DNA from: Psammoneis japonica | Lineage: Eukaryota | Assembly: GCA_008632985.1 (NCBI GenBank) | Contig: QPGO01000221.1 | Coordinates: forward strand, 1-64,000 | Reading direction: 5' to 3' | DNA length: 64,000 nucleotides | In this document: positions 1 to 25,899 of the stretch, piece by piece | Layout: the number at the start of each line of letters is the position of its first letter | How positions within the stretch are numbered: the first letter of the stretch is position 1 | The notes under the pieces: model-generated | Told to the model about the DNA's origin: nothing | Database searches by the model: none | The model's input: only the letters and a program-made list of their open reading frames with translations | Translations under genes and position numbers: made by a program

Positions 1-57
1 GCGCCAGCTTTGGGTTCTTTTGGCATTTGGTTGTCGCAGCGCAACAATGCTGAATGC

Positions 58-3168: not shown

Positions 3169-3239
3169 TATACAGATAATAATGGTACTCTAAGCTAGAG
3201 TAATGGTTTGACTATATAGTTCGATACGTAGTATACTAA

Positions 3240-4542
3240 TAGGAACTGCAGGCTATTCACCATGGTTTGTGAATCTTTCTCTAGAGTCATCGACAAGAAC
3301 AGAAATATCACACGTGATTCGACTTGAAACGCTCATTCATGAGGAGCTTATGACACTACTCGTCGGTGCGTTGGCACCTGCGGTTGAGTTCCGCAAACTC
3401 TTCCGCAAACTGCTCCTCGGTGCGTTGGCGCTTCTCTTGGTGCCTACGGTTGAGTTCCGCAAGCAGTTCCGCAAGCTCTTCCGCAAACTGCTCGTCGTTG
3501 CGTTGGTGCTCCTGTTGGCGCCTGCGGATGAGTTCCGCAATCTCTTCCGCAAACTGCGCCTCTTCGCGTTGGCGCCTCTCTTGGTGCCTACGGTTGAGTT
3601 CCGCAATCTCTTCCGCAGACTGCTCCTCAGTGTGTTGGCGCCTCTCTTGGTGCCTACGGTTGAGTTCCGCAATCTCTTCCGCAAACTGCTTGTCGTTGCG
3701 TTGGTGCTCCTGTTGGCGCCTGCGGTTGAGTTCCGCAAACTCTTTCGCAGACTTTTCATGGTCCCGTTTAGATTTCTCGAAAGACATGACAGCCTGATTG
3801 TCTTGTTCTTGAGTGTACATCTTCGCAGAACGAGTTGGGGCTTGTCCGGCAGTCATCTTGGCGGCGGGACTGGACGTGGCAGAAGGAGTCTGCAGGGTCG
3901 GGCATTTGCTGTGCCTTTTGAGGAACTCTTCACGCTCCTCTTTTTGCGGGCGAATGAATTTCCAAAGTAATTCCAAAAGCTTGCCATTGGGTCCAGCGAA
4001 TCGCCCCACGAGGAACATCCTAAACGTTTTTCGATTTACAGACTTCGCAGCTGGGTCATGAATGACATGTTCTTGCCTCAACTTGTCCACCAAAGGCTGT
4101 AAATCATTTGGGTCTTGAACCACGTGAAAGCAATTGCCGCCTTGCATGAGGACTGGAGGAGAGTCCTTGGTGGTTTGCAGTTTCCAACCGTTGGCTTTGA
4201 AGCAAAAGTTTGGCTTGCCGCACAACTCAAACTTGCACTCGTTTTTGCTTGGCGCTTCGATTGCTCTATCCATGACGTCTGGGGTGAGGATCTTGAAGTT
4301 TCGGCAAAGATGCTCTCCCCGATCCTGGTTTGGCACGTCCTCGTCAGGAAAGATGGCGGTGAAAGAATGCTGTTCCACAAAAACAAACAATGCGACACGA
4401 GCAATGATGAGCAAAAGATGGACGCACTGGTGCGCGTAGAAAAGATGCTGAGTTCAACCATCTCACCTTTCCTTCCTCGGCAGCACTTGGTGATTCGGTT
4501 TCAACCACAGCACCAACAGAACGCGGCGAATCGTTGTTGAAC
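3240..4542 (-). pseudogene. Family-X gene copy 1, 3' part (separated from its 5' part at 10431-10756 by insertions)
   Basis: SFTAIFPDEDVPNQDRGE...VVQDPNDL is collinear with the intact copy at 33486-35120. Homology stops at 4542 and resumes at 5770-5777 and 10431. Confidence 0.85.
3360..3760 (-). repeat. Coding tandem repeat of about 60 bp units (coiled-coil EEQFAEEIAELNRRHQERRQ)
   Basis: About six copies of 'cggttgagttccgcaa.ctcttccgcaaactgc' are visible on the plus strand. Confidence 0.9.
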
Positions 4543-5769
4543 AGGCATCCTTGCGGTGCGTGTCTGATGTTTTCCAACCCACCAGTTCACACTTGTGCCA
4601 GTCCGGGAAACCGTCATGTTGATGCACGAAGTGGATTTCCGCATCGCTGTGAAACCTGCAGGCGGCGACGGCGGCGTTCACACCGGTTCCGCATCGCTTC
4701 CAGTCGCGGTGCCGCCACATGCCTGCAACTCTTTTTTTGTGGGAACCTCGTTTGCCTGTAAACCGTTGCTCAATCAGAGCTGTCATTGGACGTGCGACCG
4801 ATTCGTTTGGGTTGCCGGGGCCGTGAGTTTCGTCACAGTGAATGTCCGCGTGGCGTGCAAGTCGGAGCTGATCGCCTCGCATCATGGTCTGGCTGCAGCT
4901 GGTCCATGACACTGCCAAGTTCTTCCAAGCAGCAGATTGAATGACACAACTCAATGTCTTGTCCTCAGCAACACGAGACAGAGCATCCGCAGGCAGCTTG
5001 TCATGAGCTGATGCAAACGCAGTGAGCAAATTTTGGGTGCATCGCTCCTTGTGTGCCACCAGAGCGACGTCAACTGCCTCTGATCTCACAACGAATTTTG
5101 GATTGGGAGGTTTGTGCTCCTCCCAAGATGAGTGATGCTGCAGTGACCAAATGACACGCTTGGCCGACTTCGGCGTGACGTCTCGTTTCGACACTGCCTC
5201 CAAGAAGTGCCGGTCGACCTGGTCTCGCGTCAAGCAAGGCGGCCCCGACAGAGCCGGCGATTCATCCACCCACCTTTTGCACGCATTCCACTCAGTGACG
5301 TGGGTGCCATCCACCTTGGGTGGTGTGATGGTTTGGGCCAACAAGTCTCCTGTGGAGACCTGAGACGCCATCTTGGGTCTGTTCTGCTCATTGTGATGGC
5401 CTCGAGGGATCGTCTTTTGGGGTGCACCCACCCCACTGTCAAAAGAAAAGAGGTTTTTGAAATCAAACGCTCACTTGTGGCGTTCGACAAGTGGAGTCGT
5501 TTCGAATCATGTTGACATTCGAGTGGGAAGAAAGAACATTTCGACAAGTGGATTTTGTGTCTTGTCCTGTTCTGAAGGTTCTTATCTTCACTGACCACAG
5601 GCCCATCCGGGGTCCGGGAACCGGTTCCGGGGGTGGTTCCGGCGCCGGCCTCCTACGGGCAGGAACCACTGAGGACTCCCCCCGGTTAGCGCTGTCAACC
5701 CGTGACGTCAGGGGGAAGCGCGCCCCCCAATCAGCGGTGGTTGTTCCTGTCAACCGGTGTCGCGCGACC
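4543..5769 (-). mobile_element. Crypton-like tyrosine-recombinase transposon fragment, 3'-truncated
   Basis: ORF 4463-5431 has MMRGDQLR, GKRG, GMWRHRDWKRCGTG..A...RF and FPDW, typical of Crypton/Ndc10-type YR. The sequence is absent from the empty site at about 34891-34910. GC-rich palindromic end at about 5600-5769. Confidence 0.7.
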
Positions 5770-5777
5770 GGCTGCTC

Positions 5778-6144
5778 TGCAGCAGCGACTGTTGTGTGCA
5801 CATTTATGATTGCACATTATTTGCATGTCAATCGCACCACAGTCGTGGATGCGTACAAAGGACAGAACGATCACACAGAGTTGATCGGATGTCGAGAATT
5901 GCAAATACGATCGATTGACGATGTTGACATCTTGCGTGTCAATGGCAATCGCATCCGGACAATCTGTTGTCACGAACATGTTCTCCGAAAGGCCTTTTGT
6001 CTGTAGAAGCAGTGCAGAAGCTTTGGGCCATTGAGAACTCGTTCGGAGAAAACCAAAAATCACAGAGCAAAATTTAATCTCACAATTTCCACTTTTCGCA
6101 CACTGTTCTACTTTCGTTTACACTCGTTCTTCGAGCACAGTGCA
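5778..6144 (+). repeat. 5' LTR
   Basis: Direct repeat of 10063-10430. Starts TGCAGCA and ends CAGTGCA. Confidence 0.95.
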
Positions 6145-9100
6145 TTGTGTAGAACGAATCGCATCAGTTCTGCTGGAATCGATTTCCGAGCGGAAGAAGC
6201 TCAAGCCGAGCAGTGCCTCAAGATGGAACGCTGTTTTTCGTCTGCCAGACAAGAGGATTCGCTTTAATGCGGTCTGTTCCAAGCACCCAAGGATCAAGGG
6301 CTCTACAAGTGCACCGCATTGTCAAAAAATCTACACCGATTCATGGTTGCAGAGAATGCAAGTCCCGAGTCGATGTGGTCCGAGAAATGTGTCTGCCAAG
6401 CAAGGAGAGACTGTTGGAGAGTTTTTGGAGACCGAATTAACGAGCCTCGAGTCCAAGAGCAAGATGGAACCGTTGGAAAGTACCTCAAGAGTCTCATGTC
6501 TCATGTCTTTCCAAGAATTGCACTTCAGAATCAAAATCATTGTTTTCAAGACGATCTGAAGAAACCAGAGCTGCTTGACAGCAAGAAAGCCTCTGTCAGA
6601 CCCAAGAGGTCAATGATGAGAGTCCATGCGACCCTCAGATGGATTCTAAGTCGAATCTAGCGGGAAACCGAGCGCTGATTTGTCAGCTGTCACTCGCACC
6701 GCAAGGATGGCAGCATCAGTCTGCTGTCCAAAACAATCAACTGTTGCAACTCATCCTTGATGAACTGACCAAGTTTTGAGTCATCTAAAGGTCGTTCATG
6801 ACGTCCGTGACAAAAAAACATGTCAACTCAGGCTCTGATGGCGCAGTTGGTTCCAAAATAAAAAAGGTTCCAAATTTGGTTCCAAAAATGGTCTCCTGTG
6901 TGGTGCCAGAACAATCCAAAGTGAATGCAAGGTCTCATCTTTGAAAAAAGAACACCCACATCACGGATTGAAGCCATTCTAAAAATGAACTAGCAAAAGA
7001 GTGCAAGGGTGACTCTGAAAGAGACCCAAAAATGCGCCGTTCAAATGGCAATCGCACGCGGTCGCGTCGCGACAACGAAAATGCCGCTCGCAAAAAAAGA
7101 GATGAACGTCATGATTGATCAGGCGGTTCAAAAAATGCTCAAAGCGAGTTCCTTGAACAAAGAAAAAGAGCATGAGGGCAAAGAATCAGATTCTGATGCC
7201 CTCAGTGAAGAAAAACACCAATTTGATCGGATGATCCAGACTGAATCCGAAGAACAATTTTGGTCTGTTCACGAATTGTGTGCTTTGCTGGACATTAGGA
7301 AGCCTAGAAAAAAGGCAGAAATAATTCACACTAGTCCAGGAGTCATCATTTATATGAATACTTCCTTGGGAAAGGAGAGAAAAAAAAGCATCTACGTGTT
7401 CCTATCGACAACGGAACATCGTCAACCATAATTTTGCGCAAATTCGTGCGAAAGTTGAGAACACAAGAATCCGCCACCAAAAACTTGGGAAACCAAGGGT
7501 GAGCTCTTTACGACTGATAGTAAACACCGAATTCAGTTCTCACTATGCGAAATTTAAGGAATACTGATATTCAAACAGGATATGTTGAAAACACCAAATT
7601 TTCTTCAGGTTCAAATGATGTGATCATGGGACGCGACTTAATGTCCAGTCCTGCAAGTCATATTGGACTACGCAAATGAAGAAATCTAATGGGAAGAAGC
7701 AATTACCTTATGAAGAATGTTCATACACTCTTCGATGCCGATGTTTTCAAGCTGAAAACCGATCACATTGAAAAATATGACGCCGTGAATAGAGTTAATA
7801 ACGGAACCAATGGTCCTCGACTCACATTATCACGCCATCGATCTTAATCAAGTGACAACTACGGCGATGCATCTAACCCAAATGAACACAACCAACTCAA
7901 TCTTCTTCTTAAGAGGTTGAAATCGTTTTGGAAAGTTCCTCAGACGAATGTATGGGAAGCATCAGTGGATCTCATCGTGGAAAATCTGACGCGATTCCAC
8001 GACGCGTGAGAACCTTCTCCTATCATAGTCTTTGGAGGCGTCCAATCAAAAGGAGTTTGACCTATTATGAAAGATTGAAGTCTTAAGAATGAAATTACTC
8101 TGAATAAGTCGCTCTGAGACTCATTGTCTAAAGAAAACAGGTCGAGTTCGACCGTATCCGACACTCAGAAGCTTAGTAAAAGGTTCATACACGTAGTGTA
8201 TCCTTTACCCAATATTCAGGAAATACTATTGAAGCAAGAACGTTTCATATATGTAATCTATTTGATTCAAATATGGAATGCCACCATGTCAAATAAAAAA
8301 AGCACACGTCGTGCTCACACGAAAATCATGCCGTAGGGAGAAAATGAGTACTATAGACTTCCAATGAGAATCTATAGAGCCCCAGATATTTTTAAACAAC
8401 ACATGAGTGAACTCATAACAGGTTTGAAGTTGTCAGAACGACTGTATATGATCGTTTATACCTGACAAAAGGTGACTTCAAAATATCACCTGTACAAGTG
8501 ACAGCTTAATACGGCATTCAAACGACTAGAACAGTCGCTTAGAAGGTTAACAACAAAAGTCCTTCACTATTCAACTTGAAATAAACTATCAAGACTTCCA
8601 TACGTAACGATATGCAATCGATTACAAAGAAAATGGAGGCGATTCAAGCAATCGCAACACGAGAAAAACGTAAAGAACACTACGACATCTCGTTGTCATA
8701 CGTTACTATTATCGAGACATGTAGTCTCAACGATCTCCTGTACAATACTAGCCAAATTCACCTCAATAAAGGTCAAACGGCAAAAGTACAAGTACGGAAC
8801 GAAAAGTCTCCGAAAATATGGAGCGTATCAAATCAAAAACTATATTGTTATCATACACGTATTTCAATATTATACGTTACAACGGAAAAAAGAACTTCTG
8901 TCCATAGTGAAAACACTTAAAAAATTCCGAAATATACTGTTTGGCCAACAGATTTATACATACACGGATCATAAGACACAACGGACAAAGTCATACGTTG
9001 ACAACTTCAGTCCCGAATTAGAATACAACGAGGGCAAGGCGAACATCGTCGCGATAGACGCGATCAGCCGACTTACTATAGAAAATTGAATCCTACGACA

Positions 9101-10062
9101 ATGTTCTACCGTTAAAACGGGTTAAAGACATTCCCTCCAAATTGTCGGACGCGACATGTCATACGAACACTTTTCGTGGAGGCGAGCGAGATCGAAAAAT
9201 GCTCATGTCACAAGGATAAAATCGCCTTTTTAAAGGACGATTTAGGAAAAAACAGTGACAGATTGGCACACATTATACGCATCCACTTCACACTGGCAAA
9301 AGACAATCTCACAACACCCGTACGGTTGTATTGTACAATGCACGAGGCAAGACATTAAAATGTGCATCATGTCGACACACGAGATGTGCCAAAGATCTAG
9401 AAAAAGAAAAGAAAAATGGACATTTGTCCACTCAGTGCACGAAACCAGTGCCTTTGGAATGACAAAATGGCGCCAGCATGTCAGAAAGAAACGTCCAAAC
9501 AACGATTAAAATCCAACTGACAGATGGTTGAAGTGCAAAAAAAAAAAATCCACAATGGAACTCACAACCATCACAGGATTGATCATCAAGACGAAATGGT
9601 CACAATGTCTTTGACCATCGTTTGTTGTCACTTGTGAAACGTGGCAGTGCAGCAGAGCAACATGGCACACAAAGTGAGCCCGCCAAACTACATGAAATCC
9701 ACAAGCAAGTGAGTGAATGCCACAATTGAGAGCGTGCATTAAGTGCTGGGCACGATGCTGTGTGCAATCGATGTCAGGAAAAACACTTGCTCCAGGACAA
9801 CCCAGTCCTTGTGTTCATGTCAACAAGAACGTCAATGAGAACACTCGACGCAATGCTGTGTGCACACACATCAAGTGAGAAACAAACAATGTCACTCTCA
9901 AAAGACATTCGGAAATTGGAACAGCCCTGCATTGCCCATGCAAAACAACAACAGTCATTGCCAATGGCACAATGCAGTGAAAGTGGAGACATTGTTGACA
10001 CTGTCGATGTCCGTCGAATGATCCACTTGCAAATGACTCCAATGTGCAATTAGGGAGGCGAA

Positions 10063-10430
10063 TGCAGCATGCGACTGTCACACACATGTTTGTGATCATG
10101 TGTTGTTTGTGTGTCAATCGCGCCACAGTCGTGGATGCGTGCAAAGGACAGAACGATCACACAGAGTTGATCGGATGTCGAGAATTGCAAATGCGATCGA
10201 TTGACGATGTTGACATCTTGCGTGTCAGTGGCAATCGCATCCGGACAATCTGTTGTCACGAACACATTCTCCGAAAGGCCTTTTGTCTGTAGAAGCAGTG
10301 CAGAAGCTTTGGGCCATTGAGAGCTCGTTCGGAGAAAACCAAAAATCACAGAGCAAAATTTAATCTCACAATTTCCACTTTTCGCACACTGTTCTACTTT
10401 CGTTTGCACTCGTTCTTCGAGCACAGTGCA
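10063..10430 (+). repeat. 3' LTR
   Basis: Direct repeat of 5778-6144, preceded by a polypurine tract and followed by the TSD GCTC. Confidence 0.95.
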
Positions 10431-10756
10431 GCTCTACGCCAGCGAAATGAGGGGAAGCGAACTCATCCTTGGTGTCATTCGAACGCAGAGATGCAAGCTC
10501 GTCAGCGGTGTTGTTTGAACGCGGAGAGAAAAACACGCGCGCAAAATTTTCTGGGTTAAAAAATCTCACCTTTCTTTCCTCGGGTTCTGTTCGAACGCAG
10601 AGATGCAAGCTCGTCGGCGGTGTTGTTGGAACGCGGTGAGAACAACTCGTCGCCGGAAGAGTGCGGCGATCGCAATCCCTCCGAGTCGCTCCTGTCGTTG
10701 TCATTGTCGTTGGCTCCGCCAGCCACTGCGGAGAGAGCGCCTTTGGAGAAGTTCAT
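10431..10756 (-). pseudogene. Family-X gene copy 1, 5' part
   Basis: MNFSKGALSAVAGGANDNDNDRSDSEGLRSP matches the start of the 33486-35120 ORF. It contains an internal duplication of the ADELASLRSN segment. Confidence 0.85.
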
Positions 10757-10879
10757 CGTGAGAATGGCATCAATGCAATGTCAAATGCTCAATGCTGTTG
10801 AGTCGGGTTGAGTTGTGACGGTTGTGATGCGAGTGCTTTTGCGACGCGCTGCGATTTCAGATTCGAGTTGTGATTCACT

Positions 10880-11060
10880 CCGCAGAGCCTGCGTGGCTTG
10901 ATGTGCCACAGTGTTGGTTCTTCGCAGAAGTCTGGCATGTTTCCACCCAACGGATCTTTTTCGAATTTACAGCAGCGCGTGCGCGCGCATGCGCGTCTTT
11001 CAAATTCCGCGTCCCGCTAAAAACATCGCACGCGACGTCATCATTTCATCGGCCTGTCTG
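10880..11060 (-). promoter_or_regulatory. Family-X upstream module, copy 1 (TA-converted, E2F-like site altered)
   Basis: Homologous to 20770-20960, 35230-35402 and inverted 49700-49890. It lies upstream of the ATG at 10756. Confidence 0.6.
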
Positions 11061-11949
11061 CATGACATGTGGTGAATTGTGGACTTTGAAGCTTGTTGCT
11101 GTGCTGCCGGCAGTCTAATCACAGAAAGCCCTTCCAAATTCACTCAAATGTTAAGACCACCCTTGGCAGACTGGCCGTCAATCAAGATGAGTGCCCATTG
11201 ACAAATCACCCGATGACGGCAGTGCAGCAGAAGCACACGCAGGGCCCATGCAGCAGCAGACCTCTGCTCTGGTCAGGGGGCTGACAGCCACACTCACCAG
11301 AGTCAACGAATGAATGACAATGCTTCCTTCACCTCTGGCGGAAACCTTTTGAATCATGCATGAGGTCCCCATTCGCATGACCCCACTTTCTCTGCTCCAA
11401 ACCAGCTCACAATTTTCACAACGACAAAGTCGCAACACATCTTCTTTTTCAGCGCCTGGTGCGTGCACAGGGCACAACATTGTCAATCAAATGATGGTTT
11501 TTCTGGCTCATCGCCAACGAATGAACTTTGTCTCAAAGCGAGTTTTCCCCAACAAACCACCCAACTCACATTCATGGGAATGCAGCAACTGGCGACAAAA
11601 CACCTTGTGTCCCTCCTGGGTGATGCTTCTGCTGCCAGTCATCACTGACGTCGATCGCGTCTGCACGTGGCTGGATGTGAGAAACTGCTGGATGGCTGGT
11701 GTGCATGTTTGTGCGGCACATGCGCAGTTCCGCACTTGCCATGCCGCCGGCCTGTGCCGCACTGCCGACCAACCAAATGTCTCCTCCCAGGCAGATGGAC
11801 CGGCGACCAACCGCGCCGCGTGCAAACCTCCTCAAGACCGTCTGTCCGCACCCTCGGCCCATCTTTTTTCCACACCGGCCTCGGGCACAAAAATTGAGAA
11901 AAGCGCGGTCACCATGGTGCGGTTGTTGCTGTTGCGGCTGTTGCTCTCT

Positions 11950-13490
11950 CATCGGAACAAGCGGTTTGGCCCCTTGCTGTCGCTCCCATTCCTTCTCCAT
12001 CCTCCACTCAATGGATCTCACCCCACCCCCAACAAGCGCAACTGCTTCAACCTCGCATTCGTCAACTCCAGAGCCCCATGCATCGCCGTCAGATGTTCCA
12101 ATTGCTGCACAGACCACCATGGCGATGAAGGAGCCAGCACTTGTTGTCATCGAAATCTTTGACACCGACATTTGGATCGGTCGTCACCAAGGTGACTGTG
12201 ACCACAATGGAGACTGTGAATCTGGTTCACGCAGTTACAAACGTGACAGATCCTTCATGTTCTGACCTTGGTGCGTGGAACAGAGATTGTTGCTGTGACC
12301 CGTGCTGTGTTCCTCCACCAACCCCGCTTTGTCCACATCCGGAACTAAACTTCTTGTACAGTGATCCACCAAATGGTGAAAAGCAGGGGCTGTGCAGCGG
12401 AGACTGTGACAGGGACAACCAGCGAGAGCCTGGATTGGCATGCTTCACACGTGACAGCTTTGACCCGGATCCATGCTGGTCTGGACCAGGACAGTGGATC
12501 AAAGATTGCTGCCACAACGCGTCTGAAACACTGAACCCCAGTGCATCTGTGAGTGCGTCCGGCCCAACCGGCAGCCCGACGTCACCTCCAGCCACTGCAA
12601 ACCCCACAGGACAGCCGCCACAATGTCGCCACAGACTCAATCAAGGACGGCTCCTTGCGCTTTACTTCCAGTGCTCACTTTCTTTGCTCAGGACCTGCCA
12701 CGCAGATCATTCATCCTCCTCCCCTTCAAACGCTCCCTCCGACAACAGCAATTTTGACTGTGTCGTCGTTGCCACCCACAATGCAGCCTCCCACTTCAAG
12801 CCCAACCGAGGCAAACACCTTGTCACCGACGGCACACAACATCAGTGCACCCGACATTCAAGTTCTTTCGTTTGTCGCAGAACATGCGCTCTTGAGAAAT
12901 TGGTGTGGGATTGATGCAACCGAGACTGTGAGCCCGGGTTGCGCTGTTTCAAATGAGACGGTTTCGTGAAACGCACGTAATTTCTTTGCGCTGCGAATGC
13001 TCTGCATTGTGAGATTCATCTCATGTCGCTTCTTTGTTCAGCTCCAGGTTGCTCTGGCAATGGGGAAGAAGAACAAGGACTGTTGCTTTGATCCTTTGAC
13101 ACTGGTTCTGGCGCCGCCAATGGAACTAGCGCCACCCCTGATTCACCTTCGCCTTCGCCAACTCGCTGTCACATGTTCGCTCTGCCATTGACCAACATGG
13201 GGACAAAGGAGTTGACACTGGTTGCAATCAATGTCTTTGACATCGATGCTCGGCTCGGTCGTTGTCAAGGTGATTGTGACCGCAAACAAGACTGCAAACA
13301 TGTTCCAAGACTGGAGTCAGTGGGGCCCCAGCAATCAGTTGTCAGGAGTGCGTCATGAACGGGCAATTTGTTGGGCATTGAGCTCTGATGCGCATTGTCA
13401 AGAAAGACCGGTGTGCTTTGAGCGCGTGGGATTTCAAAAAGCACCTGGATGTGTCGTGGCCGTGGGTCAAGGGGGGCAGCTGCTGCACAT
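11950..13490 (+). pseudogene. Frustulin-like (acidic cysteine-rich domain) cell-wall protein remnant
   Basis: Repeated GRHQGDCD, GLCSGDCD and GRCQGDCD, plus GL.CF.RD and PGC.G.G..DCC motifs separated by Pro/Thr/Ser linkers. Many frameshifts. Confidence 0.8.
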
Positions 13491-14550
13491 CCGGTGGACG
13501 CAAGTTGCACGAATTGTGTGTTTTTGTTTGTGACTTTGTCGCTGCACACCACGACGCTGCGGCAGGACGCCCACCCCCATTTTGCCGGTGCTGTTTGCCA
13601 TTTTGGGACTCACCTCCATGGGCAGCACATTTTTTTCGTTGTGGTCGCTCCGTTGTGTCATCAATCCCAATCAACTGCTGGCCAAGAGTTGCAAGCCGGT
13701 GCACGGCATGATTGTGGGGGGCTCTCATGGGAAGAAACACCCGCTCAAGAAATGTGTCAATGTCATCATGATTGCAGGTGGTGTGGCGCTCTTTGTGGGA
13801 GGGTGAGTGTGTGTGGTGTGGAACAAACAACCACCTGTCGTCGGCTCCGTTTTGTTGTTGTTACAGATGTTTTCTAACACAACCCTCGTTTCAACCATGT
13901 GTCCATGTGTGCAGTGGAGACTCAAGTCGAGCAAAAAGAGCAGTGCCAATGAAGATGTTGGCGGCGTGTCATCTCAAATGTTTGGCATTCTGCTCTTGTT
14001 TGTCAGTCTCGGCTTTGACAGTGGCACGGGCGCGCATTGTACGAGGACAAGCTCATGAGCGTCCATTCAGTGGGACCCTTTGATTGAATGTACATTGTTC
14101 AATCGGGCAAAACCATCTTGGCGGGAGTGTCACTCCTTGCACTCAATCAAGTTCATGTCTTTTTGCAAATGTGTCAAGACATGTGATTCTTGTTGGGGGC
14201 ACTCGGTTTGAGTGGTGCACTCGGACAAGTTGTCATTTTTGTCACAATTGCCAAATTTGGGGCCCTTGCGTTGCGACACTGGTGGCGTGCATTTGCTTTT
14301 CTGGACATTCTCTGAATGGCATCCAATTTACCGGACTCGTCGTGAGTGCATCTGCCGTGGTTCTCAACTTTTTCGGAGAAAAAGGGAGGCGGTGGACATC
14401 AACCACAAGCAACACCGCACCTGAGGATTAAGAAATGGAACAGATTCTTCCGGATGAACCGAGTGCTGTCATCCTCACGGTGATGATGTCGAACTAGGAC
14501 CGCTTGCCGAGAGTGGAAAAGAAAACAAGCACAATGCTTCTCTCGTAGCG
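13490..14550 (+). pseudogene. SLC35B1-like fragment, copy 2, heavily TA-converted
   Basis: LAKSCKPV...GKKHPLKKCVNV, collinear with 2190-3168 and 18790-19870 including the intron. Confidence 0.85.
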
Positions 14551-14964
14551 TGGCACAGACAACAATGTGGTGCTTTGAGCCAGAGCAATGGTTTGACCAT
14601 AATTTGACATGCAGCACACTGGTGGGAACTGTGGGATGTTCATCATGGTTTGTGAATCGTTGTCTCTCTCTAGAGCAGAAACAACAAGAGAAGACATGGC
14701 ACTCACAGTCAGTGGAACTGGCGCTGGTGGCAAGAATCTGCCGAAGCAAAGGGTGCGTTGAACTCGTTCGACGTGAATTCAGACGACGGATGATTCGACT
14801 TGAAACGCTTGGGCGTGGGTGCATTCACCAGGAAATCAAGACACTGCTCATTGGCACGCTTGCGCTCGCGGAAGTGCTCATCCATGAGTTTTATCTCTTG
14901 GTCTTGTTTTCGTTCCTGAGTCTTCAACAACTCTCCAATCTCCTTGTGTGCTTCTGGAGTGAAC

Positions 14965-15352
14965 GTCCTTGCAAAACGAGAAGGGGCTTGTCTGGGAGTC
15001 ATGTGGCGGCGGGACTGTCTTGGTGACGGATGGCAGTTGGTTGCGTGAAGAGAGCGCCCGACTCATCACGAGCCACAACAGCCTGATTGCATTGTTCTTG
15101 AATGCACGTCTTCGCAGAACGAGCAGGAGCTTGTCCGGGAGTCATCATGGCGGCGGGACTGTCTTGGTGACGGATGGGAGTTGGTTGCGTGAAGAAAGCG
15201 CCCGACTCATCACGAGCCATGACAGCCTGATTGCACTGTTCTTGAATGCACGTCTTCGCAAAACGAGTGGGAGCTTGTCCGGGAGTCGTCATGGCGGCGG
15301 GACTGTCTTGGCAAAGGATGGGAGTTGGTTGCATGAAGAGAGCGCCCGACTT
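14965..15352 (-). repeat. About 123-bp (41 aa) tandem repeat, three copies
   Basis: ARDESGALFTQPTPIRHQDSPAAMMTPGQAP..AKTCIQEQCNQAV recurs, and 'ggcggcgggactgtcttgg' appears at about 15005, 15150 and 15293. Confidence 0.85.
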
Positions 15353-15632
15353 GTGACGGGCCTCTTCCTGAGGAGGCAAGCCACATCTGGCTTCCTTGGA
15401 TTCCTGCTCATTGAGTGACTTGAGCAACATTTCCTTCTCCTGTTGCTTTTTTTCGAGTTCTTTCTGCTTCCTTTTCTGGCAATGCCTGCGGTTTGCTTCG
15501 CTTTTCTTGAGCTTTCTCTCCTCCTCCTCCGCACTCTTCTTCTCCTCGGCTTCTTTCTTCTCTCGTTTCTTCTTGTCTTGATGCCTCTGCGCTATCTTGC
15601 GGTTTTGTTCCCTCTTCCTTTCCAACTTGGTT

Positions 15633-15657
15633 GCAGCAGCAGCAGCAGCAGCAGCAG
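15633..15657. repeat. (GCA)n microsatellite encoding poly-Ala on the minus strand
   Basis: gcagcagcagcagcagcagcagca seen directly. Confidence 0.9.
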
Positions 15658-17076
15658 TGGCGGTGGCGGCGGCGTTGCACACCGGCGGTTCATTGCCAAA
15701 GGCAGCCAATTGACGAGCTGTGGAGAGGATGGATGACTCCATTGCAGGGCGTGGCTCTATCATCTTCGCATGGACACCCTGCTGTCCATAAAAACAAACA
15801 ATCCGACACGAGCAATGATGAGCGAGAACAAAAGAGAGTGCGAGTGGAACAAGCAGGTGTTTTTCAAGTGTCGACCATCTTGCCTTTTTGCAATCTTCGT
15901 CCGCACCCCTTGGTGACATGATTTCCACTTCGGCACCATTGTTCGAACGCGGAGATGCAAGCTCGTCGGCGGGGTCGCAGTCACCGAGATCACAGCATAA
16001 ATCACCTCTCAAGAACACTCCTTTCACTGGATGCAGGCCATGACATTCACCGTTCAGGAAGGATTCTAGAAGTTGCTTGTCGTTGACATCATCGTCCGTG
16101 TCAAGAATGCGAAAAACGAACAGGACGTCATTCTCATTTAGATTCACGCTGGGTGCTAGCATGAACTTCACATTGCGGTCAATCAGTCTCTCGTTGCGAT
16201 GTGCCGGCAAGTCCTCCAAGTTTTCCAACGCAACCAGTGTTTTAATTCATCCTTGGTGTTCCTCCAATGTAGTTTTGGCATCACGCCATTCGATTCCCAT
16301 GTCTCCAAACGAGTGAGAACAAACGGAAGGTTCCTTGTTGTCCGTGCTGACAATCTCCGTGAGAGTGTTTTCAAGACGATGGGTTCCTGCAACCACAATC
16401 AAATCCAAAGAAGGCAATCGGTCTCCTTTCATGGGCCCTTCCAATGCTTTTACGTGACTTCCCACAAGATAAATGGAGCATTCGGCATCGACGTCCAACA
16501 AGCCTTTCACGATAGAGGAAACGAACAGTTTCGAGTTTTCAATCGTTTTCAATCGTCCTTCGGCTTCTCCAAACTGCAATGTGTCACTCTCGTCAAACAG
16601 CTCAGTGCGCTCTAGATTGTCGATCTTACGGACACGCTGCTGTCCCTCGCTTGCGGCTTGCGGGCGTCTTCTTTCCATCGTGATAACAGCGGCGGCGATG
16701 ATGTTTGCCGTTTTCTGAAAAACTGAAATCGGAAGAAAATGTGGCCGGAATAAACCAACGGTGTTATTGCGAACCCCGACGACGTCAGCCGAATTTATGA
16801 ACGGCACGGCACGAGCTCCGAACTCGCCATTGCTTTTTGTCCATCGACACTTTCAACTTTCACGTTCGTCATTCGTCACAAAAAAAGACACACCGCCATG
16901 GCGTCAAAGACGTAGTGCTCTACCACTCCGTAACTATACATAACGATCTGATACCCGACACTTGGTAGTATCATCAAGCACTTTTCGTTGTACTTATTCA
17001 CATTTTTCCCGTTCGAAATGAGTGGCCGTGGAAGGCAAAAAAGGCACTCTCTAACATATCGTCACGAAATCTTCGG

Positions 17077-17442: not shown

Positions 17443-17702
17443 ACCTTCTCTGAAGAGGGAGACGGTAATCAAAAGCTTCTTTTTAAGCTGGCAAAGCGTC
17501 TTCACTCGATTCTGATTAGAAACGACTCTAGCGCTGCACGGAGATGTGACCCGACAGCGCATCTACCGAGCGAACGCTTGCAGAGCTTGCAAAGTCAGAC
17601 GACAGTTTTCTATGGTTGTGCTCTGTCTCTCTTCTGGAAGAACAAGAAAAGAAGTAGAGAAAGAAAAGGGATTGGAATTGGAGGACAGCCGGCAATGGAA
17701 CC

Positions 17703-18168
17703 GTAAGTGTATATAGTATGGAACAAACAACTACCTATCGTCGTCACGCCGTTGTCGTTATAGCTGTTTTCTAACACAACCCTCGTTCCAACCATGTTTG
17801 TATTCTTTAGTGGAGACTCCAAGCCGAGCAAAAAGAGCAGTACCGACGAAGATATCGGTGGCGTATAGTCTCAAATGTTTGGTATTCTGCTCTTGTTTAT
17901 CAGTCTCTGCTTTGAGGGCGGCACGGGCGCGTACGAGGACAAGCTCATGAGCGTCCATTCGGTGGGACCCTTTGATTTAATGTACAATATTCAATTGGGC
18001 AAAACTATCTTGGCGGGAGTATCGCTCCTTGTACTCAATCAAGTTCACGTCTTTTTACAAATGTGTCAAGAAATGTGATTCTTATTGGGGGCACTCGGTT
18101 TGAGTGGTGCACTCGGACAAGTTTTTATTTTTGTCACAATCGCCAAATTTGGGCCCCTTAAGTGTTCC
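17703..18168 (+). pseudogene. SLC35B1-like fragment, copy 3 (intron plus middle exon part)
   Basis: MFGILLLFISLCFEGGTGAYEDKLMSVHSVGPFDLMYNIQLGK. Begins at the intron donor and ends in a fusion to frustulin sequence. Confidence 0.85.
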
Positions 18169-18790
18169 AACATCAGTGCACCCGATCTTCAAGTTCTTAC
18201 GTTTGTCGCAGAACAATGAGCCCGGGTTGCGCTGTTTCAAACGAGACGGTTTCGTGAAACGTACGTATTTTCTTTGCGCAACGAATGCTTTGTATTATAA
18301 GATTCGTCTCATATCGCTTCTTTGTTCAGTTCCAGGTTGCTCTGGTAATGGGGAAGAAGAACAAGGACTATTGCTTTGATCCTTTGACACTAGTTCTGGC
18401 GCCGCCAATGGAACTAGCGCCACCCCTAAAAAACGCAGCAGTTTCACCTTCGCCTTCGCCAACTCGCTGTCACATATTCGCTCTGCTATTAACCAACATG
18501 GGGATAAAGGAGTTGACACTGGTTGCAATCAATGTCTTTGACATCGATGCTCGGCTCGGTCGTTGTCAAGGTGATTGTGACCGCAAACGAGACTGCGAAC
18601 ATGTTCCAAGACTGGAGTCAGTAGGGCCCTAGCAATCAGTTGTCAGGAGTGCGTCATAAACGGGCAATGTATTGGGCATGGAGCATCGAATGCGCATTGT
18701 CAAGAAAGACTGGTGTGCTTTGAGCGCATAGGATTTCAAAAAGTACCTGGATGTGTCGTGGCCGTGGGTCAAGGGGGGTAGCTACTGCAC
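18169..18790 (+). pseudogene. Frustulin-like fragment, TA-normal paralog of about 12840-13490
   Basis: EPGLRCFKRDG, VPGCSGNG, KDYCFDP, LGRCQGDCD. Collinear with 12840-13490. Confidence 0.8.
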
Positions 18791-19870
18791 ATCGGGTGGA
18801 CGCAAGTTGCACGAATTATATGTTTTTGTTTGTGACTTTGTCGCTGTACACCACGACGCTGCGGCAGAACGCCCACCCCCATTTCACCGGCGCTGTTTGC
18901 TATTTTGGGACTCACCTCCATGGGCAGTACATTTTGTTTGGTACGGTCGCTCCGTTATGTCATCAACTATTGGCCAAGAGTTGCAAGCCGGTACACGGCA
19001 TGATTATGGGGGCTCTTATGGGAAGAAAAACCCGCTCAAGAAATATATCAATGTCGTCATGGTTGTTGGTGGTCTGGCGCTCTTTATGGGAGGGTGAGTG
19101 TGTATAGTATGGAACAAACAACTATCTATCGTCGTGATGTCGTTGTTGTTATAGCTGTCTTTTAACACAACCCTCGTTCCATCCATGTATTTATTCTACT
19201 ATGGCGATTCCAAGTCGAGCAAAAAGAGCAGTGCCGATGAAGATGTTGGCGGCGTATCGTCTTAAATGTTTGGTATTCTACTCTTGTTTATCAGTCTCGG
19301 CTTTGACGGTGGCACGGGCGCGTATTATACGAGGACAAGCTCATGAGCGTCCATTCGGTGGGACCCTTTGATTTATGGTACAATATCCAATTGGGCAAAA
19401 CCATCTTGGCGGGAGTATCACTCCTTGTACTCAATCAAGTTCACGTCCTTTTACAACTGTGTCAAGAAATGGGCTTTCTATTGGTGGAACTCGGTTTGAG
19501 AGGTGCACTCGGACAAGTTTTTATTTTTGTCACAATTGCCAAATTTGGGGCCCTTACGTGTTCCATAATTGATGGATTGGCACGCAAGGTTTCGACACTA
19601 GTGGCGTCCATTTACTTTTATGAACATGGGGTCCAATTTACCGGACTCGTCGTGAGTGTATTTGCCATGGTTCTCAACTTTTTTGGAAAAAAGAGGGAGG
19701 TGGCGGAAATCATCAATAAGCACCACCGCCACCCGAGGATTAAGAAATGGAACAGCTTCTTCCGAATGTACCGAATACTATCATCCTCACGGTGATGATG
19801 TCGAACTAGGACCGCTTGCCGAGAGTGGAAAAGAAAACTTGCACAATGCTTCTCTCGTAGCAAAGTATAG
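18790..19870 (+). pseudogene. SLC35B1-like fragment, copy 4, TA-normal
   Basis: LAKSCKPVHGMIMG, PLKKYINV, FGALTCSII..LARKVSTLVASIYFY. Same intron as the other copies. Frameshifts and stops. Confidence 0.85.
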
Positions 19871-19899
19871 ATAATAATGGTGCTCTTAGCTAGAGTAAA

Positions 19900-20755
19900 G
19901 GCTTGACTATAATTTGATATGTATTATACTAATAGGAACTGTGGGATTCAAGTTGACTGTCTGTGATTCTTGACGCAACAGATCTGCCTGCTGTACCAAA
20001 ATCAATGGTACTTCAAAGCCAGTGATCAACCTCGTACACTTGCTTTTTCAATTGACTGACTTTGCCGAAGTGGAGGTTGCGTTGAACTCACTCGACTTAT
20101 TTTCGGATGGGTGGTTCGACTTGAAACGCTCGTTGGGCGTTGGCATGATTCTCGCGTTCATCAGGAACTCAAGTAGCTGCTCCTCATCACGTTGGCAATT
20201 GCGGTTGTGTTCCTCAAGCGCTCGGCGAGACGAACACAACTGTTGCTCATGCTGTTGCATCACATGCCCATGCTGTTGCATCATTTGCTGATACCTTTTA
20301 AAAATGACGGTCGCCCTGTCATCCTCAAACTCTCGACGAGACGAATGCAACGCTTGCTGATGCTGGTACAAAGCTTGCCCATGCTTTTGCATCATGTGCC
20401 CATGCTGTTGCATCATTTGCTGATGCCTTTCAAAAATGACGGTCGCCCTGTCATTTTCCCGTTTCTTGCTCTTCAACAACTCTCCAATTTCCTTGTATGC
20501 TTCTGGAGTGAACATCCTTGCAAAGGGAGAAGGGGCTTGTCCGGGAGTCATCATGGCGGCGGGACTGTCTTGGTGACGGATGGGAGTTGGTTGCGTGAAG
20601 AGGGGGCTCGACTCATCCGTTGGAACGTCCTCGTCAGGAAAGATGGCGGTGAGAGAACACTGTCCATAAGAACAAACAATGCGACACGAGTGATGATGAG
20701 CGAGAAGATGGACGTACGCGCACAAAAGTCACTGGGTTAAAAAATCTCACCTTTG
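19900..20755 (-). pseudogene. Family-X copy 3, internally deleted, with a duplicated Gln/His-rich segment
   Basis: SLTAIFPDEDVP joins directly to QDSPAAMMTPGQAP. DRATVIF...QQMMQQHGH occurs twice. Confidence 0.7.
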
Positions 20756-20769
20756 CTTTTGACTCGATT

Positions 20770-20960
20770 TTTGATGCATTCCGTAGAACCTGCGTGACTT
20801 TATGTGCCACAAAGTGGATTCTCCGTAGAATCAGGCATTGTTTCTACACGCCCAACGGATCTTTTTCGAATTCGGCGCGTGCGCGCGTGCGCGCGTTTTT
20901 CAAATTCCTGTCCCGCCAAAAACATCTCACGCGATGTCATCATTTCATCGGCCTGTCTGT
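20770..20960 (-). promoter_or_regulatory. Family-X upstream module, copy 2
   Basis: ttcaaa (20899-20904) and tcccgccaaa (20911-20920), an alternating GC tract, and homology to three other copies. Confidence 0.6.
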
Positions 20961-21600
20961 GGTGCTGACTTGTCTTTTATGAATTTTGGAATTTGCCTTC
21001 TTTGCATGCAGCACATTCCACCACGAGAAGGCAGGCTTCACTCGGAACCACTGAGGCACGCAGCCAGCTCACAGGTGGACCCAGGCACTCCCCCACACCC
21101 CACACTCCAGCGCTGCTGCCACAAAACAGGGAGCAAGAGCACCCAGCTCTGCTGGTGTGAGCTCAGCGCAAATTGTTCCTCATCTTTGCTGGCACACAGC
21201 ACACCTTCTTGACTTCATCAGCACCTCATGTGGCAGCAGCAGTCTGGTCTGTTGCTGCATCACAAGACACATCTGATGCACCCAAGGCACCTCAAGCAAG
21301 AACACATCAAAAAGTGACCCACAGCACCAGCAACTTGCTGACAAGATCCCCAAAAGGGGTTGGTGTTGCAGCTGCTCAATGGAGCTTGTCAACCACATCA
21401 GCCCTTTGCAAATGTGCTGAAATGTCAAGCTGATTAAAAACAAACAATGAGCCACCCCCCCCTCTTGGCAGCCGAGTGAGAGTCATTGTTGGCTGCTGCT
21501 CCAAAAGGGGTGTTTGACAAGCTCCAGGCTGAAAAAAGTTGTCGGCTGCAACAAAGCTGACCAGTGCTGCTCAAAAAACAGGAGCAAGTGGCTCCCCATG
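20770..21600. repeat. Long inverted repeat arm, partner at about 49020-49910
   Basis: 'tcatcagcacctcatgtggcagcagc' (about 21215) reappears as 'gctgctgccacatgaggtgctgatga' (about 49379). The ORFs SSAPHVAAAVWS.. match on opposite strands. Confidence 0.9.
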
Positions 21601-24600
21601 TTGTGTGCACCACAACCCACCATTCCAAAAAAGGAGTGCTTCATGCAACCATGAGGGCAAGAGTGCTGAAAAAGACCTCACCACCAGACGCTTTGGCCAG
21701 TGCATGGTGTCTTGGCTTGGTTTTTCATTGGGCAATTCTTGCAACCTGGTGGCCAAGGAGGGCAACATTTCCCTGTTGCAAGAGTGGAGTGCACAATCAA
21801 TGTCCCTTGCCAAATGCCAACACCATGATCTGCTGCACTGGTGACTTGTTTAAAAGAGACTTGTGCTGCTCTCCATTTGGAGGAAAGCAAAAGGAGTGAA
21901 CATGTTTCAGAAATTTCCTCTTGTCATCTTGACTCTTGGGGCAGCAACACAAGGTGATGGGGGAGCAAGTGACCCGCGCAAAACTCTTCTTTTCTTTGTA
22001 AAAAATGCTGCTTTTTTTTTGTCTGGCCCCACAGCACAAAAGAAGCCAAACAGCTGACATGGCATGTCGAGTTTGCATTTGGGTGCCAAGGATTTGTGCA
22101 AGGAGGAGATGTCATTCTTTGAAGCATGTGCACCTGCAAAGGCCAGCTGTGCTGGCATCAGTTTGTGATTGACCTCTTGAGACAATGCCTGCATGTGGGC
22201 ACTTGCGCTGAATGTGCAAATGCCCCCCTCCATTGACTGCTCATTGGCTTGCCTTGTTTGCTTGTGGTGCACACTGTGCGCAAGTCTGCTGCGCCAGAAC
22301 AAGAGCAGGGGGTGCAGTGCTGGTCATGCTGGCAGAGTTTTGATGAGCCACAGAGTGGTGTGTGTCTGTCATCTGTGTGAAAAAATGAGATGGACTTGGC
22401 AAGAATCCTCTGCAAAAAAATGAGTGCCGGAGTGCTGACCAGTTGGCCACACACATTTGGCTTCATTGTCAATGTCTCTAACTGGCCACACCCTGCAGGG
22501 GAAGCCAGAAGCTGGTTGGCACCAGATGGGTGAGTGCACATGAGAAGAAATGCAGCACACCCAAATGCAGTGAGAGGGTCAAAATGTTGTGAGATGAAGT
22601 GACTGCAAAAACAATGAACACAAACCCAACTTGGCCAAGGAATGAAGCACACAAATGTTGTCCACAGTCACTTCAATCTTCTTGTCTCAACAGATCAGTG
22701 AGCGCTGCTTGGGTTGCTTGCCACAACATTGCTGGGCATTGTTGTGCTGCAGTTGGAGAGTGCAAAAGAGACAGAGTCTGTTTTGTTGATGGCGGCTCTG
22801 TTTTTTGGCCACAGTGATTGTTTTGCTTGCTGCACTCACTTGAAAGGCATTTTGAGAAGTGTTTCACAACACCACTCTGTTTGCTTTGGGTGTTCTGCAA
22901 GATTTTTGGGCATGTGTGTGTGGTGTGCATTTGAAGCATGGGAAACTTCAATGATGTGTGCAGGCCTCCTCAGGAACACACACAAACTCATGCTCCCTGT
23001 GGGCCACACAGATTGTGCGCCAGCAAAAGTCTGTCACCTGTCAAACTCATTCAGCGGTGACTCCACACAAGACTTCATCAGAGGCAGGTTTAATGAGCAG
23101 GGGATCAAATTGTTCCATTGGGTTTTGGTTCCTTAAATGAGGGGCCAAGTTCGTTTAAAATTTAACCAGCTTTCATCATTTTCACACCGCCCCTCATGTT
23201 TCCCGGAGGGCTTCCTTTCTGCATGTTCTCTGCATGGACTGCCCACACAAAATTCTTCTTCTCTTTTTAACTGATGCTCTTGTTTTGTGTGCAATGTGTC
23301 ACCTCTTTTTTTCCCATGGTGAAGCTGTCTTCCAATGATCACAAAAATTTCAACCTTCAGCCTTTGATTGTGTTGAAGTTCTGTTCAACCTGCAAGTTTG
23401 TTTGCTCTGAAATTTTTGTTTGCTCACTTGTGTCCTGCCCCGAAATTTTTGTTCAAATTTTTTTGTCATTTTGCCATGCAAACAACACATTCTCACCAGT
23501 GCCATCAGTCGCCGTTCCTCCCAATCTGGCTCCTCAAAGGCAAGGAGGGGCATCCACCACTCTCGTCCATCAAAGAAGCACTGCAACAGTGCAGCCCAGG
23601 ATTGGGAAGTAAAGTCACCAGATCAAGAACTGCGGGTCTTCATCCACTCAGATTTGTGCAATGCCACATTGCTTGGATGGCACCAGAGATGTCTCTGCCA
23701 TGCTGCCAGGGTTCATCCCATGGCCCCCTTCATTGTTGGGAGTGTGGCCGGATGTCCTGTTTTGTTCGGCAGCTCATCTGATGTTGCTGTCAGGGTTCAT
23801 CCCATGGCCCATGCCCCCCACTCCAATTGGGGGTGCAGCAATGTCAGTGGATGCTCCCTGCACTGACTTTGTCAGTTTGTGTCCCCAGCTCCCTCCTCAC
23901 TTTGCAAGCTGGAGAGTGTGCTGCCAAGGTTTGTCCCATGGCCCCTGCCTTTTGCAGGGGCGCAGCTTTTGGAGGCTGCCCCATTCTGGGTGTGGTCAAT
24001 TGTCATGACACCACCTCATGTGGCATTTGCAAAGGTGTCAATCTTGGTTTTGTTGACTCTGTTGACCAACACACAGGTTCTTCTCCTGCCACTTCCCCCC
24101 TGGTCTTTGGCAAATGTTCCACATGTTGAACCCGGCCCCCCCCTGACATTGCAGCAGCATCTTTGCCTCCTGTTGCTGCATCACCAGATGTGTTGTTGAC
24201 AAGCACTCCCTCAACTGATCCAAACTAACACAAATGAATGGAGTGGGCATGGCCTGTCACTTCCGGGCGATGTGGTGCCATCCCCTCCTGTCAACACTTG
24301 ACAGTCATCCACTGTCCCACGCTCTGTTCCCAGACAATGGAGAGGACTCAAGGACATCAGCATGGTCTGACTGAGTGGAGCCCAAACAATCCCATTGGAA
24401 GAGAGTTTTCACACTTTGCAAGCTTGGGCAGGCCAGCTGCGCTCATTGGACACACATCACTTGCGCTCACTTTGTGCTGCACAATCTAGACAGGGGTCAG
24501 GCATCTGTTTGTGCCAATGGGAAGCACTGTCATCACATGATGGCACACACTCAGACATGCACCGGGCCATTGCACAGCTCCATTGCAAGGGCACCATCCA

Positions 24601-25899
24601 ATTTGAAGTCTGTCCTCCAAACCAGAACCACCACAACAACTGCTTTCACATTGTCAATGAGGGCCACGCCATCCTTGATCCAATGGATTTCAAGGCCCTC
24701 TCCAAGAAAGCTGGCAAAACTCCTGCTGCCAGCTCTTCCTCCTCTTGCACTGTTTGCCAAATGCTTGGCATGTTCATGGACTGTGGCTCTGCACATCCAG
24801 TCAATGCACGGGAAGGAAGAATTTGCACAACAACGTGCCGATCGGTCATGTCTGGCCTGTCAATGAGATCCTGTCATGACATCTGGGTTTGTTGCTGTTT
24901 CCAAACACATCAAGCAAGTTGGCAATGTCCCTTGGTTTGCCCCCCCAGACAAGCTCTGTTTAACCACAATGACCCGTTGGACATCAACGCAAAGAAAGGC
25001 AACAAAATTGCTTGTGGTTGTTGTGTTCCTTCCCTGCGTTTGGCCAACACAAAACTCAGTGGGCTTTTGGATTGCCGCTTCAACAGCCACAACAGCCTTC
25101 AGACAACCAAAGCACCTGTTGTGTCTCTCTCTGAGGCAGCCTTCAGCAGCGCAGGTGAGCTGCAACAAACAGCTGCGACAGGATGCATGTGCAGCGAACA
25201 TGACCAACAGGTGGCATCCAGCCAAAGCCATTCACTCACCACACATTGACAAGGTCTGGTCCATTTTCAACTCATTGCCAGAGCCACGCAAATCTGTTGG
25301 CTTGGACCACACAAGAAGTGGTTCATTGACTGATGATTGCATCCCCGGCTTTGATGTTCTAAAGATGAAGTGCAACCTTGATCCATTTGGCCATTTGCTC
25401 TCATCAATCAATGTTGTTCTTGATGAGTTGGTTCAGATGCACTCGCTGTCCTTCCTTGCCACCATTTCCCTTTTTTGCGCACTTGGGGAGCTGCAGTTTC
25501 ACAGCCACACCATTTTGTGGCTGCCTGCACTGCATTGCACAAACCACATGTGTCACACATGCATTCCTGCATTTAGATGAATCTGACCAATGAGACGTGA
25601 ACAGAGATGGCGCATGTGGGAATGTGTGGCAACAGGCACATGCAGGGCAGGCATGTCAGCAGGCCGTCGTGGGGCCCAGCACTGGATGATTTGCAGCACA
25701 GTGTGTGAACAATGTCACTTTTAACAAACCAGTCAAAATGTGTGCTCCACAATGCCAAGCCTGAGGGAAGCAACAGCACTGCTCCAAAGCCCACAGCAAA
25801 ATGAGGTGAGAGATGTCAGAGCAATGCAAGTGGCAATTGTGGAGGACTTGCCAAGAACAGGGACAGGATGGGTTGGCCACAACACAGGATGATGCAAAT

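Follow-up and report, generated by a model that had tools for sequence, protein, structure and literature searches.

One-way loss of TA dinucleotides in a transporter pseudogene and in kilobase-scale blocks of a diatom-like genome, with likeness to the TpA-restricted hypermutation of Bigelowiella natans

To our knowledge, before 2026 cytosine deamination of the RIP type was the only well-known wholesale self-mutation of chosen parts of a eukaryotic genome. A second case was reported for Bigelowiella natans, in which integrated NCLDV and virophage DNA undergoes TpA-restricted hypermutation (Mettrop et al., bioRxiv 10.64898/2026.01.13.699255). As given in the main text of that preprint, two integrated viral regions took up 231 of the 302 new nuclear mutations; almost every mutation there was A to G or T to C, and all of these were at TpA. 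The mutation rate, raised about 1000-fold, was measured across generations in mutation-accumulation lines, and an ADAT2-like adenine deaminase was proposed, not proven. A full-text literature search, which found this preprint, brought up no account of TpA-specific hypermutation from a diatom.

The DNA analysed here is a 64-kb stretch of a diatom-like genome, called the window below, in which a self-comparison revealed four fragments of one gene, copies A, B, C and D (Table 1). As far as the sequences can be compared, they point firmly to a one-way, motif-specific change of TA to TG or CA in copy B and the 6.75-kb block surrounding it, with copies A, C and D keeping the older TA. Judging from the main text of the preprint, in both systems only TpA is changed to TpG or CpA, by A to G or T to C and in kilobase-scale regions, and the long-term trace is a depletion of TpA with a gain of CpA and TpG, which in B. 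natans is seen in clustered 1-kb windows. In our material, 77 of 93 TA of copy C are TG or CA in copy B, and the gain of CpA and TpG lies in discrete kilobase-scale regions. RIP in ascomycetes is similar in its dense, regional, dinucleotide-specific transitions, which wreck duplicated or selfish DNA and skew the dinucleotide indices. However, its direction and base are the opposite, as RIP turns CpA into TpA by cytosine deamination and the change seen here runs from TpA to CpA or TpG. RIP also mutates both members of a pair, whereas here only copy B of the two sisters was converted (copy C: 94 TA, TA/AT 0.76). Neither a derived TpA nor mutation of both copies was found. Moreover, GC content is higher in the depleted blocks, whereas it falls under RIP.

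Table 1. Positions of the gene fragments, peptide strings and TA-depleted blocks in the window.
Feature	Position	Strand	Description
Copy A	2211-3282	+	unconverted SLC35B1-like fragment, second exon still open
Copy B, SLC35B1-like part	13619-14665 (flagged stretch 13580-14400)	+	dead pseudogene, TA nearly erased
Copy B, composite repeat	12929-14637	+	frustulin-like fragment, then SLC35B1-like fragment
Copy C	18217-19947 (SLC35B1-like part 18921-19941)	+	unconverted sister of B
Copy D	17695-18169	+	short unconverted SLC35B1-like fragment
Partner of 58-577	60569-61100	+	unconverted; 69.6% identity; contains YEQDVYD
KKYPLKKYI	2324-2350		copy A
GAYEDKL	2619-2639		copy A
SIYFYGH	2901-2921		copy A
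KKHPLKKCV	13732-13758		copy B
CICFSGH	14288-14308		copy B
YEQDVYD	60956-60976	+	
CEQDAHD	177-197	-	
KDYC	18363-18374		copy C
KDCC	13075-13086		copy B
TA-depleted block	1-1600		2 TA in 1.6 kb; contains 58-577 (minus strand), the converted partner of 60569-61100
TA-depleted block	4000-7000		29 TA; partly converted towards 7000
TA-depleted block	9750-16500		contains copy B; 38 TA and 369 CG in 6.75 kb
TA-depleted block	20900-32050		largest; 29 TA and 110 CG in 11.2 kb
TA-depleted block	41800-49650		19 TA and 112 CG in 7.9 kb; CG depleted too up to about 47400
TA-depleted block	57000-58950		11 TA

The second exon of copy A matched the Pfam family UAA (PF08449, E 7.6e-14), which places the gene in that family. 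At E <= 0.001, 504 relatives of copy A were retrieved, the best of which were 82-84% identical; UDP-galactose transporter B1 or SLC35B1 is the name of many of them. A protein of Pseudo-nitzschia multiseries, 77% identical, was the only match named by organism, and for this reason the window is taken as diatom-like. Owing to stops, frameshifts or truncation, all four fragments are dead. Compared with copy A, the frame of copy B is broken by two TGA stops, an insertion of 5 bases and a deletion of 31 bases; copy B retains the intron, which is TA-converted as well. Copies C and D contain frameshifts or stops, and copy A is cut short on its 5' side and carries a TAA in its first exon. This TAA (2267-2275) stands against CAA in B and C and Gln in the orthologues, and the 5' edge of copy A carries several further private changes; copy A, though in other respects the best preserved of the four, has therefore undergone a decay of its own and does not represent an unaltered ancestor.

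Copies B and C share a longer duplication (12929-14637 and 18217-19947) with an identity of 85.6%, and besides the TA-type sites they are separated by 110 ordinary differences and by indels. The copies are mosaics: in the overlap with copy D, the site patterns joined B with D at 10 sites, B with C at 7 and A with B at 2, so any argument from a tree leans on few polarised characters. A nucleotide-level outgroup was sought in metagenome contigs with a 20-base pattern conserved in all four copies, and none was found; the scan returned three loci, all of them unrelated GC-rich DNA with only 21-22 bases in common.

The flagged stretch in copy B contains 5 TA against 49.9 expected from base composition, and the lowest count among 2000 shuffles of this stretch was 34. 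Copy B has CA or TG at 77 sites that are TA in C, at 52 that are TA in A and at 21 that are TA in D, and no reversed site was seen in any of the three comparisons. The 93 aligned TA of copy C are represented in copy B by TG (43), CA (34), TA (11) and other dinucleotides (5), never by CG, and the 11 TA remaining in copy B are all TA in copy C too. CA (94%) and TG (89%) were otherwise stable between C and B. Both strands were thus affected within one block, and the TG and CA outcomes formed 34 runs along copy B against 39.0 +/- 4.3 expected, i.e., no significant coordination by strand (P = 0.145). The dinucleotide indices of copies A, C and D are ordinary (TA/AT 0.74-0.94, (CA+TG)/(AC+GT) 0.97-1.16) and those of copy B abnormal (0.11-0.12 and about 1.5, respectively).

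The direction of the change was analysed with 120 SLC35B1 relatives aligned with the two exons of copy A, the codons of copy B being assigned through the DNA alignment. Twelve residue-altering codons differ between A and B by TA-type changes only. At eight of these the majority of the orthologues have the residue of the TA state, at three the picture is unclear, and at one they have the residue of copy B; this exception is a change private to copy A, as C and D agree with B. Six columns are Tyr in at least 90% of the relatives. Copy A has Tyr in all six, copies C and D likewise have Tyr at the conserved columns, and in copy B the six read His, Cys, Tyr, Tyr, Cys and Ser. Conserved Tyr was accordingly replaced by His or Cys three times in copy B, and the reverse was seen zero times: Cys or His occupies seven columns in at least 90% of the relatives, and Tyr was absent from all seven in every copy. 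These results bear out the sequence-only reading of this locus, which had proposed from the tyrosines that TAY became CAY or TGY in copy B; His or Cys in the orthologues would have spoken for the opposite direction, and at these six columns at least 90% of them have Tyr. All the peptide strings that it quoted are present (Table 1), and three of its examples need correction, among them YEQDVYD (see below). From SIYFYGH to CICFSGH the first Tyr was lost by TA to TG, as claimed, and the changes of S to C and of the second Y to S are transversions. The supposed loss of Tyr from GAY to GAH did not occur, since GAH sits in the 5-base insertion shared by B and C, and the Tyr codon proper, TAC, is still intact in copy B at 14040.

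Independently of the orthologues, copy B shares derived states with its unconverted relatives. Polarised by the orthologues, CAC and GGC at copy A positions 2294 and 2297 and GGC at 2601 (Cys to Gly) are common to B and C, and a TGA stop at 2769 and GGG at 2781 (Val to Gly) are common to B and D. The 5-base insertion is also common to B and C and reads TATTA in C and CATTG in B. Copy B is therefore nested among the copies and is not an outgroup to them. In the depleted block neighbouring copy B, 12 of the 15 listed differences are CA or TG in the window and TA in high-depth contigs of other copies. The orthologues, the shared derived states, the composition and the other genomic copies support TA as the older state and CA or TG as derived in copy B.

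With TA ancestral by these four lines, ordinary RIP acting from CA to TA on the other copies is not supported, as the sequence-only reading had also argued. It is extremely unlikely that a RIP-like mutation of C to T in CpA struck copies A, C and D while copy B was left in its original state. Several features do lean that way, namely the TAA of copy A at a position where B and C have CAA, the indices of copy D (TA/AT 0.94, (CA+TG)/(AC+GT) 0.97), which are near the thresholds used for Neurospora, and the CA or TG to TA changes private to A (7) and to C (6). Nevertheless, private changes this few are in keeping with ordinary mutation of C to T, copies A, C and D remain rich in CA and TG, and the TA O/E of copy B (about 0.1) is abnormal for any genome. 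The codon counts (8 against 1), the Tyr read by A, C and D at the conserved Tyr columns and the derived states that B shares with C and D also stand against it.

In both B and C the SLC35B1-like part is preceded at its 5' side by a fragment which we take to be frustulin-like. The full HMMER search with this fragment gave 22 weak multi-repeat matches (E 9e-7 to 8e-4), and a word search of longer proteins with the same piece gave no match. Seven of the 22 matches were re-aligned, to copy C only, and the D-Y-C motif was found in 13 of the 13 repeats covering it, in six of the seven relatives. Copy C reads KDYC and copy B KDCC, so the direction proposed for this pair from the sequence alone agrees with the Tyr kept by the relatives. 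For the frame with YEQDVYD (60731-60985) the word search of longer proteins gave no homologue, which is weak evidence, and the frame hits a stop five codons later in both copies, so that it may well not be protein; this example adds nothing to the question of direction. Aligned with 58-577 on the minus strand, 60569-61100 showed seven TA-type sites and none reversed. Downstream of this stretch, a block of normal TA content carries a fragment of an SNF2-related helicase (61555-62019; PF00176, 24.0 bits against a cut-off of 24.9).

The loss of TA extends far beyond copy B. A map in steps of 250 bases showed six sharp-edged TA-depleted blocks that together make up 32.3 kb of the 64 kb and contain about 4 TA per kb against 45 elsewhere (128 TA in 32,305 bp of depleted blocks, 1219 in 27,107 bp of the remaining blocks). 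More than 90% of TA is gone from them, across exons, intron and unannotated DNA alike, and the O/E of CA+TG is 1.3-2.1 inside and 1.0-1.4 outside. Every pair of a normal and a depleted sequence showed the asymmetry towards TA loss in the depleted partner. Summed over five such pairs (C-B, 34243-3906, 34942-10577, 49664-10661 and 60569-58), 116 TA-type sites stand against 4 reversed, with 17 against 2 for 3906-4542 compared with 34243-34902. As an internal control without TA bias, 40111-41057 and 63060-64000, both in normal blocks and 97.3% identical, have 20 differences, of which the TA-type ones are two in one direction and one in the other.

CpG was lost as well, and more so from the converted copies than from their partners (16 vs 9, 15 vs 7, 11 vs 3 and 16 vs 4, the last for the pair with 58-577), which suggests that the depleted blocks may be silenced and methylated. 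Within 20900-32050 the O/E values are 0.02-0.10 for TA, 0.09-0.22 for CG and 1.7-2.0 for CA+TG. In this block and in 41800-47400, TA and CG are both near absent (CG O/E 0.05-0.22, CA+TG O/E up to 1.7-2.1). The decay of 5-methylcytosine at CpG also ends in TG or CA and acts in the same blocks, chiefly these two. However, it cannot remove TA, and blocks such as 9750-16500 lost their TA with CG O/E still at 0.66-1.26. Copies B and C are equally duplicated and only B, which lies in a block, is converted; the trigger is therefore position or chromatin state and not duplication as such.

None of the 129 ORFs of at least 90 aa in the depleted blocks was above the Pfam cut-offs, and no virus or transposon protein could be recognised among them. 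For 56 ORFs of at least 150 aa in the window, the only Pfam matches were to UAA, to RT_RNaseH over a short length and, below threshold, to CAF1A and SNF2. Those converted sequences that can be identified are fragments of host-gene pseudogenes. Short tandem or direct repeat arrays are present at 14952-15362 (units 83-89% identical) and 3370-3757 (82-86%), with similar units at 20470-20617 and 3782-3887. The segment 44001-45000 has zero TA and a GC skew of 0.456, and internal direct repeats lie at 44302-44603 and 44573-44874 (68.6% identical).

The TA-free sequence was compared with the public run X1, which is probably the assembly's own sample, so that it does not count as independent support; its library type is not on record. 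In this run 68% of the sampled words of copy B were present, the k-mer depth over the bins of copy B (12674-14674) was about 58-95, and the X1 contigs listed carry TA-free B sequence with 2-4 differing letters per piece. Hence a sequencing artefact behind the TA-free sequence is unlikely. In its most specific form, in which a modified base at TA was misread in sequencing or polishing and the real genome has TA, we regard such an artefact as highly unlikely, even though the library type of the assembly, like that of X1, is not on record and nanopore data are known for block-wise, motif-specific miscalls at modified bases. The contigs, built from exact 31-letter words, match the TA-free copy B almost letter for letter at the depth given above. 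A given TA turned into CA or into TG, in no case into both or into CG, and the choice follows the flanking bases as in a mutation that happens once only. Furthermore, the 110 ordinary differences and the indels between B and C make copy B an old, separate copy, and partly converted zones exist, e.g., at 3250-4000, 5750-7000, 16000-16750 and 20000-20900.

In 1-1334 and 5337-10672 the summed k-mer depth in X1 is 7,000-33,600 against about 60 in single-copy parts, i.e., that of very high-copy repeat families, so parts of the depleted blocks are repeats. A direct repeat of about 360 bp lies at about 5785-6144 and 10071-10430 and is 96.6% identical over its 328-bp BLAST core (5817-6144 and 10103-10430). 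The 4-kb stretch between its two members carries an RT_RNaseH remnant (8580-9089), and the middle of the unit (7300-9400) is normal in TA content with depleted flanks. In contigs of X1, position 6057 is continued by 10404, and 10078 leads back to 5809; elsewhere in the genome the unit is therefore LTR-like or tandem. The member at 10071-10430 differs from that at 5785-6144 by eight A to G changes on the plus strand, five of them at TAY.

These repeats and the retained intron also bear on whether the change took place in RNA. In that case, long transcripts would have been hyper-edited by an ADAR- or ADAT-like enzyme, reverse-transcribed and inserted, and the blocks would be retro-copies, which we consider very unlikely. 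Both ADAR and the mRNA editing of fungi typically have a strong U in front of the A that is edited (bioRxiv 10.64898/2026.01.13.699255). Remnants of a reverse transcriptase do lie nearby, at 8580-9089. However, copy B kept its intron and the intron is converted, so a processed RNA intermediate is not supported; conversion reached both strands of a single block, with 34 CA and 43 TG in copy B; and the blocks are mosaics of different repeats, 1.6-11 kb long with sharp edges. The eight A to G differences between direct repeats 96.6% identical in one stretch fit a change after insertion. ADAR prefers a G after the edited A, whereas the base at that place here is a pyrimidine, with TAC and TAT ahead of TAG and TAA.

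The sequence context of the change was obtained from six copy pairs pooled, with the trinucleotide rates folded onto one strand. The rate of A to G was 0.396 after T and 0.050-0.065 after A, C or G. By trinucleotide it was 0.546 for TAC, 0.466 for TAT, 0.246 for TAG and 0.193 for TAA, with all others at 0.016-0.083, so that an A after T became G about twice as often when a pyrimidine came next. Likewise, RTAR went to CA 21 times and to TG 6 times, and YTAY to TG 25 times and to CA 10 times (Fisher p = 2.6e-4). The flank bias and the trinucleotide rates together indicate that the unit of change is TAY to TGY, or RTA to RCA on the other strand. The same order of loss is seen in the blocks: RTAY sites were lost first and YTAR sites are the last survivors. 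Normal blocks contain 45 TA per kb, of which 16% are YTAR and 30% RTAY; partly converted zones contain 14.2 per kb (29% and 17%), and strongly converted blocks 2.9 per kb (64% and 4%). Compared with normal sequence, the blocks have a TGY/TGR ratio of 1.16 vs 0.96 and an RCA/YCA ratio of 1.29 vs 1.06, each with p of about 8e-4.

Since TA is its own reverse complement, these sequences are equally compatible with A and with T as the attacked base. The direction and the regional targeting could thus be the same with other chemistry, the thymine of R-T-A being modified (e.g., to 5-hydroxymethyluracil by a JBP/TET-like enzyme) and mispairing with G, or T at WA being miscopied in repair patches by an error-prone polymerase such as Pol eta. 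In dinoflagellates 5hmU prefers TpA, and WA is the hot spot of Pol eta. With a palindromic TA, RTA to RCA fits the data as well as TAY to TGY, and the CpG loss in the same blocks would yield G:T mismatches that start patch repair. We nevertheless hold this chemistry to be rather unlikely. For Pol eta, A to G at AA (0.065) was no higher than at CA (0.053) or GA (0.050), so the WA hot spot was not seen, and a TA loss of 97% would be hard to achieve through polymerase error.

The explanation that we consider probable is a one-way, regional hypermutation of TA to TG or CA of the Bigelowiella type, and with less confidence we attribute it to adenine deamination in DNA. The process would be of the same kind as the TpA-restricted hypermutation of B. 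natans, run almost to completion. Adenine may be deaminated to hypoxanthine in DNA, possibly by a TadA/ADAT2-like deaminase recruited to silenced repeats, and inosine would be read as G at the next replication. TadA edits the U-A-C of the tRNA anticodon loop, and the resemblance of the TAY motif to this U-A-C favours adenine deamination. ADAR and TadA/ADAT enzymes likewise turn A into I, which is read as G, with U or T before the A, and the U-A-C of TadA matches the top trinucleotide, TAC. However, these enzymes act on RNA, whereas the change described here is in genomic DNA, on both strands and with introns included, and the following G preferred by ADAR was not found.

A more specific form of adenine deamination is held tentatively. 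It would be a diatom 'inverse RIP' at the DNA level, in which a deaminase derived from TadA/ADAT2 acts at silenced and methylated blocks and converts TAY to TGY on either strand until TA has almost vanished, homologous to the Bigelowiella system and part of an old SAR-wide defence module. If so, the enzyme would have left its footprint in the flank rule for TAY and in the resistance of the YTAR class, and a comparison of diatom and Bigelowiella lineages would allow its gene to be found.

As far as the main text of the Bigelowiella preprint allows comparison, the two systems differ in several respects. The host here is a diatom-like stramenopile and there a rhizarian, and the visible targets here are host-gene pseudogene fragments and unannotated repeats without recognisable viral genes. 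The depletion here is near complete, with TA O/E of 0.02-0.1 against a Rho of 0.45 in their NCLDV region, and it is accompanied by parallel CpG loss. TAY is preferred over TAR here, and the words trinucleotide, flanking and diatom do not occur in their main text. The rate was measured experimentally there, whereas the window holds a fossil trace alone. Relative to that main text, the lineage, the near-complete loss of TA, the host-derived pseudogene targets, the parallel CpG loss and the flank rule stand out.

Some practical consequences follow. Gene and repeat finders will misread such blocks, where the stops TAA and TAG disappear, codons for Tyr, Ile and Met are altered and spurious long ORFs arise. 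The converted and unconverted copies are natural 'before' and 'after' versions for study, and any candidate enzyme must reproduce the finer motif, with TAY changed and YTAR resistant. Builders of base editors would also take an interest in a natural adenine deaminase that acts on DNA at a defined motif. For the biology of the group, the same signature in a diatom-like genome means that such mutation may be common among the major marine algae.
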